Below are positions 687 to 30,080 of a DNA stretch of 32,000 nucleotides, one piece after another. The notes below the pieces were generated by a model. That model saw nothing but the letters and a program-made list of their open reading frames with translations. It did no database searches and was not told where the DNA came from. Position numbers and translations under genes: made by a program. Origin of the DNA: Candidatus Saccharimonadota bacterium (GTDB taxonomy: Bacteria; Patescibacteriota; Saccharimonadia; Saccharimonadales; UBA4665); the NCBI GenBank assembly GCA_016700375.1, contig CP065016.1:870001-902000 (forward strand). The letters run 5' to 3'. Within the stretch, counting starts at the first letter, position 1. Each line of letters starts with the position of its first letter.

Positions 687-1575
687 GGCTCTGTCAACGA
701 ACATGGAACAAGCAAACCTGTAGGTAGGTGAATGGTGAGTCAAAAAGATGCGGCTGGTTATGCCGAGCCATCCATTCATTAAGAACCGTTTGAAGATTCT
801 TGGTAGGTACGCAGCCATAGAGTTTTCGTAAGTACCGCTTTATCTCGCTCCAGATGCGTTCAATCTGGTTTGTTCCAGCAAACTGTCCAGTGCTATGGTT
901 CCAGCTCTCGTGGGTATAGCCAAGCAGCGGCAAATCCTGGTAGGCATACCACTTGTCAGTGGCGACATTTGTTCCTGACTTTACGGTATCCAGTACGAAT
1001 TGTTCTAGGACATCCTGTCCTCTGGAATTCGTTATCCTGAGTGCAATACGGTCAGTATCCGGTTCAATTGCTCCAGTCACAATTGTCTGCGGCTGTGTGC
1101 TCTTCAGCTTCCCGAAGTAGCTCTCGTCTATCTGCACGAGGCCGCATAGAATAGTGTCTGATTCATCCGGCAGATGACACCTGAACCGTCCGTACCACCG
1201 CTCAACTGTTGGGTAGCTGACATGCGCTACCAAACATGCGGTGTCGGGGCTCTTTTGTACTGCCAGCACCAGAGCAGGACGAAGAGCTGTCTGGGGCTCA
1301 GCTTCATGCCGTACAACCAAGAACCTTGATGAGCTGTTGGCCGATACTTCCGACGGCACTGCGAGCATCATGCATAGCGACGCACATACTGAAGCTTTAG
1401 TGTTTGTGTGCATCGTGAACAACGGAGTGTGTCACCAAATGCTAGTTTGTTAAGGAACACCCAGCACTTCTTATTACTAGGAATGTCTGTTAATTTAGTC
1501 ATGGAACAACCTTTCTATTCTTGTTAGCTTTGACACTACAAGTTTAGCGGTTGTTCCGTTTTAGTTTAATGAGCC
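687..1575 (-). mobile_element. IS1595-family insertion sequence, decayed
   Basis: Imperfect terminal IRs GGCTCTGTCAACGAACATGGAACAAGC (687-713) vs revcomp of 1549-1575 (20/27 identical). They enclose a zinc-ribbon/HTH/DDE transposase gene. AAAGTCA lies on both flanks (680-686, 1578-1584). Confidence 0.7.
694..1502 (-). pseudogene. IS1595/ISXO2-like transposase, disrupted by an in-frame TGA and one frameshift
   Basis: ATG 1502: MTKLTDIPSNKKCWVFLNKLAFGDTLRCSRCTQTLKLQYVRRYA, then TGA (1370..1368), then CSQCRRKYRPTA...LLWCWQYK. A -1 shift near 1243-1256 joins to KSPDTACLVAHVSYPTVERWYGRFR...VQIDESYFGK...(ORF track 694..1422). Confidence 0.8.
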
Positions 1576-1613: not shown

Positions 1614-2641
1614 ATGACGCCATTTATTTTCGGACTAGTTTGCGCATTGCTTGCAATTGTACTTGCTTCTTTGTACCGCGTATTTAGTCATGTGAGTCAA
1701 AAGGAGCTAAAGCGCAGGGCGCGTGGCGGTGATGAAGTTGCCGCCGTACTATACCGTTCTTCTTCCTATGGCTTGAGTGCGAAACTCGTGCTGGGGGGTT
1801 TGTTCACGCTGTTTGCCTACGGAGCATTTGTGTTCATGGTGCAGGCGCTCGATGCATGGTTGGCGCTACCTATGCTTGTAATTATTGCCATGCTTGGGCT
1901 AATTTTTGTCGAAACGAAGGGTGGAGCCAATCGAGTTTCCATTTGGTTAGCGCGCAGTGTCTCGCCTGCTTTGTCTTGGGTGCTTGAGCGCCTTCACCCT
2001 TTATTTGCGCAGCTTGCCCGTGCGCTCAGAAAAGTGTGGCCGGTACGTGTACACAGCGGCCTGTACGAAAAAGAAGACCTTGCCGCCTTGCTAGAGCAGC
2101 AAAAAAATCAGCCAGACAACCGCATAGCACATGGTGAAATCGATTTGCTATCTCATGCACTGACGTTTGGCGACAAAACAGTTTCTGACGCTCTTGTGCC
2201 GAAGCGGGTCGTCAAATCGGTCGCCGCAACTGATGCAGTCGGTCCTGTGCTTATGGATGAGCTCCACGCCAGTGGCCACAGCCGGTTTCCAGTGTACGAA
2301 GTGAAAAGGATAACATTGTCGGGGTGCTCTACCTGCACGACTTGGTCGCAACCAAAAAGTCGGGCACAGTGAGTAACATTATGCGCCGCAAGGTAACCTA
2401 CGTGCATGAAGATTTTACGCTGTACCAAACACTGCAAGCCTTCATAAAAACTAAGCAGCACCTGTTCATTGTAGTGAACAGTTTTGAAGAGTACGTGGGC
2501 ATAATCACCATAGAAGACGTGCTGGAACGAGTGATAGGTAAGCTCATTGTCGATGAGTTTGACCGCTACGACGACCTCCGCGCCGTAGCCGCCGCTGCCG
2601 CCAAGAAAGACCATGCAGCTCGCACCGAACCCTCCCCATAG
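1614..2641 (+). pseudogene. DUF21(CNNM)-CBS domain membrane protein (CorB/TlyC-like), split by a 1-nt deletion
   Basis: ORF 1614..2372 (TM region, then ...GHSRFPVYE) continues in the -1 frame as (S)EKDNIVGVLYLHDLVA...ITIEDVLERVIG (ORF 2324..2641). The junction is at ~2298-2303. TATAAT at 1598-1603. Confidence 0.8.
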
Positions 2642-2698
2642 GAATCGTAACCATTTTATAAACCACACTTCCTGTTTCGTGCTCAACGCCACGAAAAG

Positions 2699-2732
2699 TA
2701 TCAATTTTGTCCCAGCTGGGACAGGATTGATA
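2699..2732. repeat. Palindromic repeat copy 1 (TATCAATTTTGTCCCAG|CTGGGACAGGATTGATA)
   Basis: 34-bp inverted repeat centred on CAGCTG. The two arm mismatches are T/G, so they pair as G.U in a plus-strand RNA. Lies between the convergent 3' ends of the CBS gene and the PaaX-like gene. Confidence 0.9.
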
Positions 2733-2756
2733 ACGAGTCGTAGAAATCGGTGCGAG

Positions 2757-3257
2757 CTAGATCTTTAGCCGTATACTTTCATATATCTGAACGCACCCAG
2801 CAATATCCAACTCTTTGACGGCTTCGCGGATGGTTTCACGATGATCTTTTTCGCTCGACCAGACGCTTTGCTGCACGAGCTCAAAGCCCAGATTATGGAG
2901 CAGTCGTTTCAAAGCGCGCCGCTCGGACTCCATGTATTCGGGGATGTCATATATGAGCAATATACGCGCATCTTTGCCTAAAGACTTGGCTACGAAAGGC
3001 CGTACTTTGCGGAGTCCTTTTTCAGTCAGTTGGGGAATTTTACTGTTATCTATGAAGCCCTGTTTTCGCGCGCGGTAATACGCTGTCTTAACATACTGTT
3101 CTTTATAGCCCGATACCTTGGACAGCTCGTAGAAGAATTTGCCAGGTTTGAAAGAGAGCAGAAGGTTTTCGCGATTTGGCGGCAGTAACCCACGGAGTAC
3201 GTATATGAGAGCAGGGTGTTTCATGGTTCGGTAATCTGCCAAAGGATCTTTTCGCAT
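2757..3257 (-). CDS. PaaX-like small regulator (N-terminal winged-helix + Cas2/VapD-like ferredoxin-fold segment)
   Basis: 166 aa. ELSKVSGYKEQYVKTAYYRARKQGFI is wHTH-like. ARILLIYDIPEYMESERRALKRLLHNLGFELVQQSVWSS matches the PaaX-family 'fDIPE..R..R..L...GF..lq.SvW' pattern. Confidence 0.65.
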   Translation of the reverse strand: MRKDPLADYRTMKHPALIYVLRGLLPPNRENLLLSFKPGKFFYELSKVSGYKEQYVKTAYYRARKQGFIDNSKIPQLTEKGLRKVRPFVAKSLGKDARILLIYDIPEYMESERRALKRLLHNLGFELVQQSVWSSEKDHRETIREAVKELDIAGCVQIYESIRLKI

Positions 3258-3263
3258 GTCGAC

Positions 3264-3272
3264 ATTGTATCA
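3264..3272 (-). promoter_or_regulatory. Extended -10 (TGaTACAAT) 6 nt upstream of ATG 3257; probable leaderless promoter
   Basis: Minus strand reads TGATACAAT-GTCGAC-ATG. Overlaps the outer arm of palindrome copy 2. Confidence 0.55.
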
Positions 3273-3301
3273 AATCTGTCCCAGCTGGGACAGATTTGAT
3301 A
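3268..3301. repeat. Palindromic repeat copy 2 (TATCAAATCTGTCCCAG|CTGGGACAGATTTGATA)
   Basis: Perfect 34-bp palindrome in the divergent region between the PaaX-like gene and aspS. Confidence 0.95.
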
Positions 3302-3325
3302 GCGATAGGGGAATTAGGGGAAAGA

Positions 3326-3334
3326 TGGTACAAT
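3326..3334 (+). promoter_or_regulatory. Extended -10 (TGgTACAAT), candidate aspS promoter
   Basis: Matches the TGnTAnnnT motif seen upstream of many genes here. It would give a ~118-nt leader before ATG 3459. Confidence 0.45.
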
Positions 3335-3458
3335 AGCAGCGATGAAATATAGTGTGGCGACAGATATAAATCTACGGGTCGGCGAGTAGCCTGGCCGGGC
3401 TACTGCGTGTACTCGACCCTGCCGAAGCCGCACATAAAATACTAGAGGAAAACTATAC

Positions 3459-5216
3459 ATGCGAACACTTGCAGCTGAATCTATCAAACAAGTTGGCCAA
3501 ACTATTACTACTATGGGTTGGGTGCAGTCGCGCCGTGACCACGGCGGGCTAATTTTTATAGACCTGCGTGACCACACCGGGTTGCTGCAGCTGGTCATTA
3601 ACCCCGAGACGGCTGAGGCTTTCAAAACGGCCGAAGAACTGCGCGATGAATTCGTCATCGCCGCCACTGGCACCGTAAACGAACGAGACGAAAACCTGCG
3701 TAATCCACACCTGGAAACTGGTGGTGTTGAAATGAAAGTCACTGACATTCGTATTCTTAACCGCGCCGACACCCTGCCCATACAGCCATTTGCCGAGGCT
3801 CAAGCCAACGAAGACCTTCGTTTGCGTTACCGCTATCTAGACCTGCGCCGACCAAAAATGCAGCATATGCTCAAAAAACGCGCGGAGTACTACAAATACA
3901 TGCGGGACTTTGTAGAATCACAAGGATTCATCGAGGTAGCCACTCCAATCTTAGCAAACAGCAGCCCAGAGGGTGCGCGCGACTTCCTGATTCCCTCGCG
4001 TATACACCCGGGCAAATTCTACGCCCTACCCCAGGCGCCGCAGCAGTTTAAGCAGCTCCTTATGGTCGGCGGCCTACCTCGCTACTACCAGCTGGCCGCC
4101 TGTTTCCGCGACGAAGATCCCCGGGCAGACAGACTGTACGGAGAATTCTACCAGCTCGACGCCGAGATGAGTTTTATAGAAGACGGCGAAGAAGTGCGTA
4201 CCACCTTTGACCCGCTCATAAAAAGCCTCGTGAGTGACTTTGCTGGTAAGAAATTGCTGAACGAAGATGTGCCGCGAATTCCGTATGCCGAAGCCATGGA
4301 AACGTATGGCTCAGACAAGCCAGACCTGCGGTTCGACATGAAGTTGGTGGACCTCAGCGACGTGTTTGCTGGTTCTGAATTTGGTGTCTTTAAAAATGCT
4401 GTTGCTAGTGGAGGTGCGGTCAAAGCCATTTGCGTGAAAGGCGGTGCGAGCTTAAGTCGCAGCCAAATAGACAGCTTTACAGAAATTGCGAAAAACGAGG
4501 GTGCTGGTGGGCTGGCATACTTAACCTACAAAGACGGTGAGGTGCAGTCACCAATTGCCAAATTTATGAATGAGGCGGAACTCACCGAAGTAAAAACACG
4601 ATCCCAGGCGGAAGGCGGCGATGCCGTGTTCTTTGGCGCAGACACACGCCAGATGGTAAACAAAGTGCTTGGACGGCTGCGGGGTGAGTTTGCTAGTCAC
4701 TTCGGCCTGAAAGACCCAGACACGGTTGCCCTGTGTTGGATTGTTGACTTTCCATTCTACGAGACAGACGAAAAAACCGGCAAAATGGACTTTGGCCATA
4801 ATCCATTCAGCATGCCAAAGGGCGGGGCACACGCGCTAGATAACACTGAAAACAAGCTTGAAATATTGGCCGACCAGTACGACATGGTCGCGAATGGCTA
4901 CGAAATTTGCAGTGGCGGCGTGCGCAACCACAACCCAGAGGTGCTCTACAAAGTATTTGGATTGCTCGGGTTCGACGAAGCTTACGTAGAGGAAAAATTT
5001 GGCGCCATGCTAAATGCCTTCAAGTACGGTGCGCCGCCGCATGCCGGTTGCGCCTTTGGCCTTGACCGATTGTTTATGGTGCTTATGGGCGAGGAAAACA
5101 TCCGCGAAATAGTCGCCTTCCCCAAAAATGGCTCCGGACTCGACGTCATGATGAACTCCCCGAGCGCAGTAGAAGCCGCGCAGCTGAAAGAACTTAGCAT
5201 ATCCGTCACTGAGTAG
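3459..5216 (+). CDS. aspS: Aspartate--tRNA ligase (bacterial type)
   Basis: 585 aa. OB-fold N-terminus (GWVQSRRDHGGLIFIDLRD) and class II motifs (FRDEDPRADR, GGVRNH, GLDRL). GAGGA SD 9 nt upstream. Confidence 0.97.
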   Translation: MRTLAAESIKQVGQTITTMGWVQSRRDHGGLIFIDLRDHTGLLQLVINPETAEAFKTAEELRDEFVIAATGTVNERDENLRNPHLETGGVEMKVTDIRILNRADTLPIQPFAEAQANEDLRLRYRYLDLRRPKMQHMLKKRAEYYKYMRDFVESQGFIEVATPILANSSPEGARDFLIPSRIHPGKFYALPQAPQQFKQLLMVGGLPRYYQLAACFRDEDPRADRLYGEFYQLDAEMSFIEDGEEVRTTFDPLIKSLVSDFAGKKLLNEDVPRIPYAEAMETYGSDKPDLRFDMKLVDLSDVFAGSEFGVFKNAVASGGAVKAICVKGGASLSRSQIDSFTEIAKNEGAGGLAYLTYKDGEVQSPIAKFMNEAELTEVKTRSQAEGGDAVFFGADTRQMVNKVLGRLRGEFASHFGLKDPDTVALCWIVDFPFYETDEKTGKMDFGHNPFSMPKGGAHALDNTENKLEILADQYDMVANGYEICSGGVRNHNPEVLYKVFGLLGFDEAYVEEKFGAMLNAFKYGAPPHAGCAFGLDRLFMVLMGEENIREIVAFPKNGSGLDVMMNSPSAVEAAQLKELSISVTE

Positions 5217-24952: not shown

Positions 24953-24959
24953 TAGCGAC

Positions 24960-24999
24960 TAGTATCAATTCTGTCCCAGCTGGGACAGAATTGATACTA
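24960..24999. repeat. Palindromic repeat copy 3 (TAGTATCAATTCTGTCCCAG|CTGGGACAGAATTGATACTA)
   Basis: Perfect 40-bp palindrome between the convergent 3' ends of the HAD gene and corA. Confidence 0.95.
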
Positions 25000-25026
25000 A
25001 TATGAATCACCGTTGGGGTGCCGCTA

Positions 25027-29480: not shown

Positions 29481-29555
29481 CGCGGGATGGAGCAGCGGCA
29501 GCTCGCATGGCTCATAACCATGAGGTCCCAGGTTCGAGTCCTGGTCCCGCAACCA
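29481..29555 (+). tRNA. Initiator tRNA-fMet (CAT), CCA encoded
   Basis: C1.A72 mismatch (CGCGGGA/TCCCGCA), A11:T24 in the D stem, anticodon loop CTCATAA with GG/CC closing pairs, T arm CCAGG-TTCGAGT-CCTGG. Confidence 0.94.
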
Positions 29556-29592
29556 AGAAAAATGTCTCACCGAAGGTGGGGCGTTTTTCTTG
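29554..29592 (+). terminator. 18-bp-stem hairpin starting inside the tRNA CCA end (T1)
   Basis: CAAGAAAAATGTCTCACC-GAA-GGTGGGGCGTTTTTCTTG. Confidence 0.7.
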
Positions 29593-29597
29593 TTGTA

Positions 29598-29739
29598 GGC
29601 CAAGACTTGAAGCTGGGACCAGCAGCGACGCAGTCGATGCGTAGGCCCCGGGTTCGTTCATGACGAATGCGCGCAGAAGCTTGCTTCGAGCACATGAGGA
29701 ATGGCTGCCAATAGCAGCGCCCCTGGTCCCGCAACCAAG
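29598..29739 (+). repeat. tRNA-fMet-derived tandem unit A, ending in the exact 18-nt tRNA 3' end CCTGGTCCCGCAACCAAG
   Basis: 18-mer at 29722-29739 is identical to 29540-29557. The body shares AGCAGCG and AGGnCCCnGGTTCG with the tRNA but has no anticodon arm. Internal hairpins at 29628-42, 29653-67, 29676-87 and 29704-18. Confidence 0.85.
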
Positions 29740-29778
29740 TTAAAACCCCAGTGTCAACTGGGGTTTTAACTTGGTTTT
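29735..29778 (+). terminator. Perfect 18-bp-stem hairpin + TTTT (T2)
   Basis: CCAAGTTAAAACCCCAGT-GTCA-ACTGGGGTTTTAACTTGG-TTTT. Confidence 0.75.
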
Positions 29779-29919
29779 GGCCAAGATGCGAACCTGGGAC
29801 TAGCACGCGAATGCGTGCGTGGTCACTGGTTCGACGCCAACGAAGTCGCGCGCAGAAACTTGTTTCGAGCACGACATAGTGCGAAAGCCAAAGGCTTTGC
29901 CCCTGGTCCCGCAACCAAG
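29779..29919 (+). repeat. tRNA-fMet-derived tandem unit B, ending in the exact 18-nt tRNA 3' end
   Basis: 18-mer at 29902-29919. Collinear with unit A: GGCCAAGA, CTGGGAC, GGTTCG, CGCGCGCAGAA, TTCGAGCAC, with hairpins at the same positions but different sequence. Confidence 0.85.
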
Positions 29920-29954
29920 TAAAAAGCCGGTCTTTCGACCGACTCTTTACTTGG
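29915..29954 (+). terminator. Imperfect long hairpin (T3) at the same position relative to the 18-mer
   Basis: CCAAGTAAAAAGCCGGTC-TTTC-GACCGACTCTTTACTTGG. Confidence 0.55.
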
Positions 29955-30080
29955 TTCTGAGGTTCAGATTCGAGCCAAAAAGGTTCGGCGGAGTGAGGAC
30001 GCGAGCAGTCCGTCAGCTGACGGACGAGCACGCCGCAGCGGAGAAGGACGAAGTCCGCTGTCCTGGTCCCGCCCCCAAAA
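29955..30080 (+). repeat. Degenerate third unit C, ending in a partial copy CCTGGTCCCGCcccca
   Basis: CCTGGTCCCGC at 30062-30072. Retains GGTTCGgCG...CGCGaGCAG-[hairpin GTCCGTCAGCTGACGGAC]-CGAGCAC-[hairpin CAGCGGA/TCCGCTG]. Confidence 0.65.

Follow-up and report, generated by a model that had tools for sequence, protein, structure and literature searches.

The stretch analysed here, referred to as the window, comprises 32,000 nucleotides of contig CP065016.1 (positions 870,001 to 902,000) from a Candidatus Saccharimonadota bacterium, and our interest is in a small gene, mini-PaaX, which lies between two copies of a long palindrome. The gene is an open reading frame (ORF) of 166 amino acids on the minus strand at 2757-3257, with its ATG at 3257-3255. 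Three unstranded copies of the motif TATCAA-N3-TGTCCCAGCTGGGACA-N3-TTGATA are found in the window, at 2699-2732, 3268-3301 and 24963-24996. The upstream copy (3268-3301), 10 nt from the ATG, is a perfect 34-bp palindrome that reads TATCAA-ATC-TGTCCCAG up to the dyad and CTGGGACA-GAT-TTGATA beyond it. The downstream copy (2699-2732), 24 nt from the stop codon, retains the outer hexamers and the 16-bp core unchanged and forms 15 of the 17 arm pairs, both mismatched pairs falling in the N3 spacers (two of the three spacer pairs). The third, dispersed copy (24963-24996) is perfect and lies within a 42-bp unit (24959-25000) with CTAG/CTAA flanks, between convergent HAD-hydrolase and CorA genes; its symmetry continues to a perfect 40-mer at 24960-24999. 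An earlier, sequence-only reading of this DNA had described a PaaX-like gene bracketed by two copies of a perfect palindrome. Its coordinates and its description of palindromes and gene all check on the sequence, save that perfection holds for 3268-3301 and not for 2699-2732.

The 16-mer core, with up to two mismatches allowed, occurs three times in the window where 0.01 occurrences are expected, and none of 100 shuffled sequences reached three; the outer pair TATCAA-N22-TTGATA likewise occurs three times against 0.06 expected. Neither half-sites nor decayed copies (up to 6/28 mismatches) turned up on searching the window and 57 kb of related DNA. Two of the three copies sit between convergent genes directly after stop codons. 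As DNA hairpins the palindromes are stable (-14 to -18 kcal/mol, z-scores of -8.6 to -10.7). A terminator scan of 2500-3600 called neither of the two palindromes, the flanks of which are without T-runs, and no Rfam family was matched at the gathering threshold, the only hits being chance-level matches to miRNA hairpins (E>1).

The 166-amino acid protein is matched by the Pfam family PaaX_M (PF20803, the Cas2-like middle domain) with E=5.6e-11 and 42.8 bits against a cut-off of 24, and this domain is also present in eight homologues examined. It passes the NCBIfam Cas2 model TIGR01573 (26.2 bits, cut-off 24.5) and matches the Cas2 models of PADLOC (best E=1.8e-6). With the PaaX equivalog model TIGR02277 the score is 28.2 bits where 264.55 are required, and the alignment is confined to positions 26-149 of the 279 in the profile. 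The protein stops at residue 166, directly after the Cas2-like domain, and the C-terminal helical (effector-side) domain of PaaX is absent. At the N-terminus, the PaaX-type winged helix PF07848 is not matched in the window protein and reaches E=0.0044 in the relative L052, while a weak phmmer match (E=0.086) is made to residues 49-97 of the PaaX structure 8a39. The AlphaFold2 model is of moderate quality, with an overall predicted local distance difference test (pLDDT) score of 67, 80-93 in the Cas2-like domain and below 50 at the N-terminus. Its C-terminal domain has the order beta-alpha-beta-beta-alpha-beta, and its N-terminal helices, at pLDDT 40-77, fit a winged helix. In a fold search with this model E. 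coli PaaX (8a39) ranked first and Cas2 structures second onward, VapD structures being recovered too. The assignment to a PaaX-like or Cas2-fold protein, proposed earlier from the letters alone, is borne out by PF20803, by the TIGR01573 score and by the best structural match. The protein is a predicted winged helix joined to a Cas2-like domain, a shortened member of the PaaX lineage.

Across 115 relatives residues D104, R113, Q129 and S131 are invariant and W133 is conserved at 99%; D104 aligns with the catalytic Asp of Cas2. The winged helix is far more variable among them than the Cas2-like domain. Clustered at 50% identity, the family numbers 61 clusters with E<=1e-30 and 360 with E<=1e-10, most members having 155-200 amino acids, and no homologue was found among 2.9 million viral contigs.

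An extended -10 element, TG-A-TACAAT, lies on the minus strand at 3264-3272 (the -10 box at 3264-3269, the TG at 3271-3272), 6 nt before the ATG. The start region reads TG-A-TACAAT-GTCGAC-ATG, the A of the ATG occupying the expected transcription start position, and no Shine-Dalgarno sequence can be read ahead of the start codon. The first bases of the -10 element are at the same time the end of the palindrome arm. The upstream copy spans -44 to -11 of the promoter with its dyad at -27.5, covers the -35/spacer region and touches the -10 box. This arrangement is shared by relatives. A TANNNT box stands 5-8 nt ahead of an in-frame start in 24 of 30 distinct homologous loci, only one of the loci with such a box having a Shine-Dalgarno-like motif; the usual form is TACAAT or TATAAT-N6-ATG, frequently preceded by TGn, and the palindrome dyad lies 27-32 nt upstream of the start. 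Because the -10 box is 5-8 nt from the ATG and a Shine-Dalgarno sequence is missing, the mini-PaaX mRNA is probably leaderless and transcribed from the extended -10 promoter. The folA gene also appears leaderless (TATACT-N6-ATG) in two Saccharimonadales genomes (L005, 2982-2996; L106, about 311-329), so that extended -10 promoters of leaderless genes could be frequent among these bacteria.

Layout and symmetry in homologous loci

Homologous loci, designated here by L numbers, were taken from genomes and metagenomes, and the DNA compared amounts to 531 kb in total. The layout palindrome-promoter-gene-palindrome is found in about 45 of them, in Saccharibacteria and other candidate-phyla bacteria, at protein identities of 29-96%. 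It is present in L009 (70%), L011 (58%) and L016-L043 (34-56%), and also in the distant relatives L046-L094 (29-36% identity, 160-200 amino acids), which lie on AT-rich candidate-phyla contigs. Almost all homologues have an upstream palindrome, which measures 30-52 bp and is frequently perfect, with 8-15 nt separating the end of the 17-nt arm from the start codon; past the stop codon, at 0-106 nt, come one or two related copies. Of 48 distinct loci roughly 40 have such a downstream copy, and in about 19 of 26 it is placed between convergent genes. Palindromes in which 16 or more of 17 positions pair number 69 in the 531 kb, and almost every one of them adjoins a family member or copies the window motif.

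The core varies by clade with its register kept: TGTCC-CAGCTG-GGACA in the window, and elsewhere GTCC-GATC-GGAC, GAACCGATCGGTTC or GCGCGGCCGCGC. In 47 elements the arms are complementary at 83% of cells, compared with 54% in shuffled sets (none of 500 reached the observed value) and 34-42% for slid partners. G-T pairs are not enriched in the arms, and the Watson-Crick symmetry is found on both strands. Given this lack of G-T enrichment and the position of the upstream copy ahead of the predicted transcription start, the symmetry acts at the level of double-stranded DNA and not as RNA. Outer boxes and recognition-helix types tend to go together: TA(A/T)CAA occurs with T/A-YYRAR, TTGCAA with AYWRxQ and CCACAA with KRKTLEEAARRAR. 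The inner core is common to proteins with quite different recognition helices. These few cases lead us to hypothesize that the outer boxes are recognised by the winged helices, and that an invariant Cas2-like dimer would sit over the conserved centre.

The palindromes are also conserved as sequences. In the orthologous loci L001, L004 and L015 the upstream copy is identical to that of the window although the flanks differ, and the downstream copy is kept in place (with one core change in L004). Over orthologous elements of different species 201 of 204 nt are identical, against about 89% in the flanks, which speaks for selection on the elements, as does the lack of decayed copies in the DNA searched. 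The copies within one locus agree at arm positions 1-6 and 13-17 and differ at 7-12. Asymmetric spacers are common to both copies in L011, L021, L030 and L033, as well as in L025; the copies therefore evolve in concert, and perfect pairing is not obligatory. Some family members carry tandem palindromes behind the gene (L027, 3509-3532 and 3595-3630; L031, 1067-1102 and 1135-1170), each perfect or nearly so, with one core and different outer arms.

The order aspS, mini-PaaX, CBS-domain gene is kept in the window and in L001, L004, L011, L015, L016, L017 and L022, with aspS identities of 74-95%. In other clades (L013, L024) the gene adjoins ileS. An aminoacyl-tRNA synthetase neighbourhood is thus a recurrent feature, the mini-PaaX gene being divergent from aspS in one clade and beside ileS in another. 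Its neighbours include aspS, pyrB, a gene for a CBS-domain membrane protein and a DsbA-like gene, and provide no link to paa functions; no paa genes were noted in the window, and the homologous loci that were looked up contained no cas genes. The possibility that the 603-bp block of gene and palindromes is a mobile unit did not survive this comparison, which shows a fixed place between aspS and the CBS-domain gene over deep divergence. A mobile cassette or phage repressor was rejected on the conserved synteny and the lack of viral homologues. Seven viral matches to the 16-mer core were dismissed as chance since the flanks were missing.

Rarity of the motif and its dispersed copies

An exact-match scan of one genome per species (185,579 species) recovered the motif in only three related Saccharimonadales metagenome-assembled genomes (MAGs), with 5, 3 and 1 copies, the genomes with the motif being incomplete; one extra copy with a single core change was spotted by eye beyond the exact scan. 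An abundant generic repeat at gene 3' ends would have refuted the earlier reading, which the rarity of the motif instead favours. The presence of exact copies in three species only, together with the lack of a T-run and of a terminator call, led us to reject a generic terminator or an abundant repetitive extragenic palindrome (REP).

The copies occupy six kinds of site. Site A is in the promoter of the mini-PaaX gene, divergent from aspS, and site B lies just 3' of the gene, convergent with the CBS-domain gene. Site C, the third copy of the window, is the one between the convergent HAD-hydrolase and CorA genes. Site D lies between divergent thymidylate-kinase and folA-thyA genes, site E after an HTH-HAD gene that is convergent with a HIT gene, and site F between a gene for a product of 113 amino acids and a class I tRNA synthetase gene (ileS-like). 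Sites C-F have in common TTC/GAA-type spacers and CTAG flanks within a 42-46 bp unit, features that are absent from sites A and B. The window copy at 24963-24996 accordingly resembles the dispersed copies in L002, L003, L005, L006 and L007 (TTC/GAA spacers, CTAG flanks).

An orthologue of the site C copy is present in L008, and no copy lies between corA and the HAD gene in the relatives L102, L103 and L104, one of which is the same MAG as homologous locus L018. Relatives whose ThyA is 89% and 72% identical have no counterpart of site D ahead of folA, and the position in L013 equivalent to site F is without a copy. Around the other family members, 3-10 kb of surrounding DNA contained no further copy. 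In L005 site D is upstream of both core promoters, and no tRNA or small gene was found beside site E. In L002 a dispersed palindrome lies about 290 nt upstream of an ileS-like gene (class I tRNA synthetase), and no conserved operator-promoter spacing could be shown. The CTAG flanks are self-complementary; the empty sites in relatives have diverged beyond the alignment that a comparison of target-site duplications would take. An ancient regulon was rejected on the copies missing from the equivalents of sites C, D and F. By their distribution, the dispersed copies are recent lineage-specific insertions of a 42-bp derivative into tolerant places and not an old regulon. The solo copy at 24960-24999, which had been proposed as a possible dispersed derivative, fits this description, being part of a 42-bp lineage-specific insertion that L102-L104 lack. 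Derivation of the copies from a neighbouring IS1595-type element was rejected, as the GGAACAA-type ends of that element are unrelated to the palindrome.

Proposed autoregulation and alternative functions

We favour the view, at a probability of roughly 65%, that the palindrome is the cognate dyad-symmetric site of the mini-PaaX protein and that, on a leaderless extended -10 promoter, the upstream copy works as the operator through which the gene regulates itself. A dyad-symmetric site is found over the protein's own core promoter, in a conserved position, and co-varies with the protein. An operator of this kind overlapping the extended -10 element had been proposed for the window; the layout in about 45 loci, the conserved register, the sites co-varying with the protein and the precedent of PaaX all argue for it.

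A dimer or a pair of dimers would bind the 34-bp dyad-symmetric site, the winged helices reading the outer hexamers TATCAA/TTGATA, the centres of which are 28 bp apart, and the dimer core lying over the central 12-16 bp. Because the upstream site covers -44 to -11 of the promoter, its occupation would be expected to exclude RNA polymerase, and the protein would repress itself. The downstream site probably cooperates with the upstream one, the gene of about 570 bp being looped out between them; alternatively, it may act as a roadblock that shields a weakly expressed gene from its usually convergent neighbour. Looping or insulation is our preferred guess for the downstream site, which is not an operator of the downstream gene since it usually lies between convergent genes. 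As regards relief of repression, the ligand-binding C-terminal domain of PaaX is missing in mini-PaaX.

E. coli PaaX keeps its own promoter, Px, repressed through steric hindrance of RNA polymerase, and binds widely spaced inverted hexamers, TGATTC-N27-GAATCA (PMC9493321). The PaaX proteins of E. coli and Pseudomonas (phenylacetyl-CoA-responsive paa repressors; 8a39, 3L09) have a winged helix followed by a Cas2-like domain, an order that mini-PaaX probably shares, and TATCAA-N22-TTGATA is likewise a pair of far-apart inverted hexamers. In contrast to PaaX, mini-PaaX is half the size and lacks the C-terminal domain, its site has an additional, strongly conserved 16-bp core, its module includes a second site downstream of the gene, and its host is a candidate-phyla bacterium with a reduced genome.

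LacI with its operators O1 and O2, GalR and DeoR combine a promoter operator with an auxiliary operator and repress by DNA looping. By analogy, a promoter operator and a second site a few hundred bp away would allow cooperative binding in the mini-PaaX module; unlike in those systems, the second site is fixed directly past the stop codon in nearly all family members and the loop would enclose the regulator's own gene.

Several points weigh against autoregulation as the whole explanation. A regulator whose sole conserved targets are beside its own gene has no obvious purpose, and simple autorepression does not explain a near-universal downstream copy. Palindromes of up to 52 bp exceed the expected need of a small dimer. 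Many of the differences at arm positions 7-12 are double, each copy staying self-complementary (L023, L028, L031, L039, L089), as in the within-locus compensatory pair of L089, GTCAGCGATCGCTGAC versus GTTGGCGATCGCCAAC; one protein cannot demand different spacers at two sites. The most conserved residues of the protein are the Cas2 hallmarks, including the catalytic-type Asp, and conservation is lower in the DNA-reading helix. Copying, and not point mutation, must have given rise to the dispersed copies. The double changes and the length of the palindromes hint that self-complementarity itself matters, as a hairpin or cruciform, or that a mutational process keeps the palindromes perfect; template switching at quasi-palindromes is a known process.

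The alternative that survives best, although unlikely, is a system like REP and the REP-associated tyrosine transposases (RAYT) built on the Cas2 fold. Such a protein would read hairpins or cruciforms (the apex by sequence, the stem by shape), nick or process them, and maintain and occasionally copy the palindromes, overlap with the promoter being secondary. As with RAYT (TnpA-REP) genes, the gene is single-copy and inherited vertically, short co-varying palindromes of its own stand on either side of it, further intergenic copies are frequently between convergent genes, and the arms pair through compensatory changes, which here include double changes between copies of one locus at arm positions 7-12. 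Palindromes reaching 52 bp, stable DNA hairpins and a residue invariant in 115 relatives, D104, aligned with the Cas2 catalytic Asp, would all fit, as would dispersed copies that form a distinct 42-bp, lineage-specific subfamily found mostly at gene 3' ends or outside core promoters. On the other hand, mini-PaaX is not an HUH/Y1 transposase, only a Cas2-like domain and a predicted winged helix being detected, and there are 1-5 exact copies per genome in just three species where REPs number tens to hundreds. Decayed relics are not seen in the 89 kb searched, nor are extra copies within 3-10 kb of other family members. The upstream copy is locked to the promoter, its strict register with the -10 box pointing to a transcriptional role, and asymmetric spacers common to both copies in some loci show that perfect pairing is not obligatory. 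Conservation of the Asp also counts for less than it might, since Cas2 proteins keep it even where nuclease activity is not needed. Furthermore, the Cas2-like domain of PaaX is a dimerisation module (PMC9493321). Of the REP/RAYT-like arrangement suggested for the window, the bracketing, the co-variation and a few dispersed derived copies stand; the low copy number, the lack of an HUH enzyme and the fixed chromosomal place speak against it.

A further reading, also improbable, is a structure-specific DNA system of the Cas2 fold and not just a repressor, in which the dimer would recognise and possibly nick the apex (CGATCG; CAGCTG here) with the winged helices anchored on the outer boxes, keeping the flanking palindromes perfect and occasionally seeding copies.

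Mini-PaaX has kept the fold and hallmarks of Cas2 (and VapD), namely the beta-1 Asp, the helix-1 Arg and the Q-x-S-V-W/F strand, and like the Cas2 of CRISPR systems it is associated with palindromic repeats, though only two, which enclose the gene itself. It differs from CRISPR Cas2 in its fusion to a predicted winged helix; the window contains no CRISPR-type direct-repeat array and no cas1 among the flanking genes.

Likewise improbable is the idea that the palindromes are structural or roadblock sites of the chromosome, comparable to RTP/Ter or ParB/parS, with autoregulation as a by-product. The sites are few, long and extremely conserved, several (B, C and E) lie between convergent genes, no clear regulon is apparent, and the flanking copies would serve as nucleation points. 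The RTP of B. subtilis is a small autoregulated winged-helix dimer with a handful of sites per genome, one of them beside its own gene, each Ter site of about 30 bp binding two dimers. Ter sites are asymmetric, polar and clustered at the terminus, whereas the mini-PaaX sites are symmetric and, as perfect palindromes, would be non-polar barriers. GC skew keeps one sign throughout the window, giving no mark of a replication terminus or origin, and the non-flanking copies are not conserved in relatives.

Finally, RNA hairpins without a specific protein link (terminators, 3'-end stabilisers or translational operators) are very improbable: two of the three window copies do lie between convergent genes just past stop codons and the stems would be very stable, but the upstream copy precedes the predicted transcription start, there is no U-tract, terminator call or Rfam family, the arms show no excess of G-U pairs, and the motif has few copies per genome and tracks the protein family.

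Since it lacks at least one defining feature of each of PaaX proper, CRISPR Cas2 and REP/RAYT, the mini-PaaX module is none of these, and is probably of an autoregulated-repressor kind. In the open-access literature we found no paper mentioning PaaX together with Cas2, or a mini-PaaX module, and the family, widespread in candidate-phyla bacteria, is apparently undescribed as far as that literature shows. Patescibacteria (candidate-phyla bacteria) have very few transcription factors, and to our knowledge almost none of these has been studied. The mini-PaaX family offers a predicted site, promoter type and regulatory geometry that can be read from genomes, and that lend themselves to tests in vitro and in those few Saccharibacteria that can be cultivated. 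A second site in almost every member, and palindromes that drift yet remain perfect, fall outside textbook autoregulation, and could reveal either a looping or insulating design or the recognition of DNA structure by a Cas2 fold. The latter, if true, would bear on how Cas2 came to palindromic CRISPR repeats, and structure-specific reading would make the module a REP/RAYT-like domesticated element on the very fold that CRISPR uses for palindromic repeats.

Other features of the window and related loci

The 5' region of aspS (3302-3458), on the other side of the upstream palindrome, has a good extended -10 element, TGGTACAAT, at 3326-3334, which leaves 25 nt between it and the palindrome. A leader of some 120 nt comes next, containing a GC-rich hairpin that can also be recognised in L011 (fold z=-1.97; no Rfam match); this may be an uncharacterised aspS leader element. 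Beyond the downstream palindrome, two overlapping ORFs (1614-2372 and 2324-2641) make up the CBS-domain membrane protein gene, which in L001 is a single intact ORF of 345 amino acids; the split reflects either a frameshift (pseudogene) or an error of assembly.

Relative to L001, the window carries an insertion of about 888 bp at 688-1575, encoding an ISXO2/IS1595-type transposase (ORF 694-1422, minus strand; PF12762, E=3.6e-16). Some 10 bp of target sequence can be aligned at each side of this IS1595-type insertion, suggesting a target duplication. A separate 44-bp near-perfect palindrome, AAAATTCTAGTTCTCTATGCTATAGCATACAGAACTAGAATTTT, occurs in L011 at 2153-2196 (also in L012 at 2048-2091), with an EamA transporter gene on one side and a PIN/MazE toxin-antitoxin pair on the other, and may be another long operator in Saccharibacteria.

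Towards the far end of the window lies a tRNA-Met gene (29481-29555), the last 19 or so nucleotides of which (CCTGGTCCCGCAACCAA) are repeated three more times downstream at a spacing of 160-182 bp (29481-30080). Two of these tRNA-end repeats are followed by perfect or near-perfect 20-bp hairpins, at 29733-29776 and 29913-29956. The repeats resemble traces left by several rounds of integration at the tRNA, or tRNA-like units that have degenerated.

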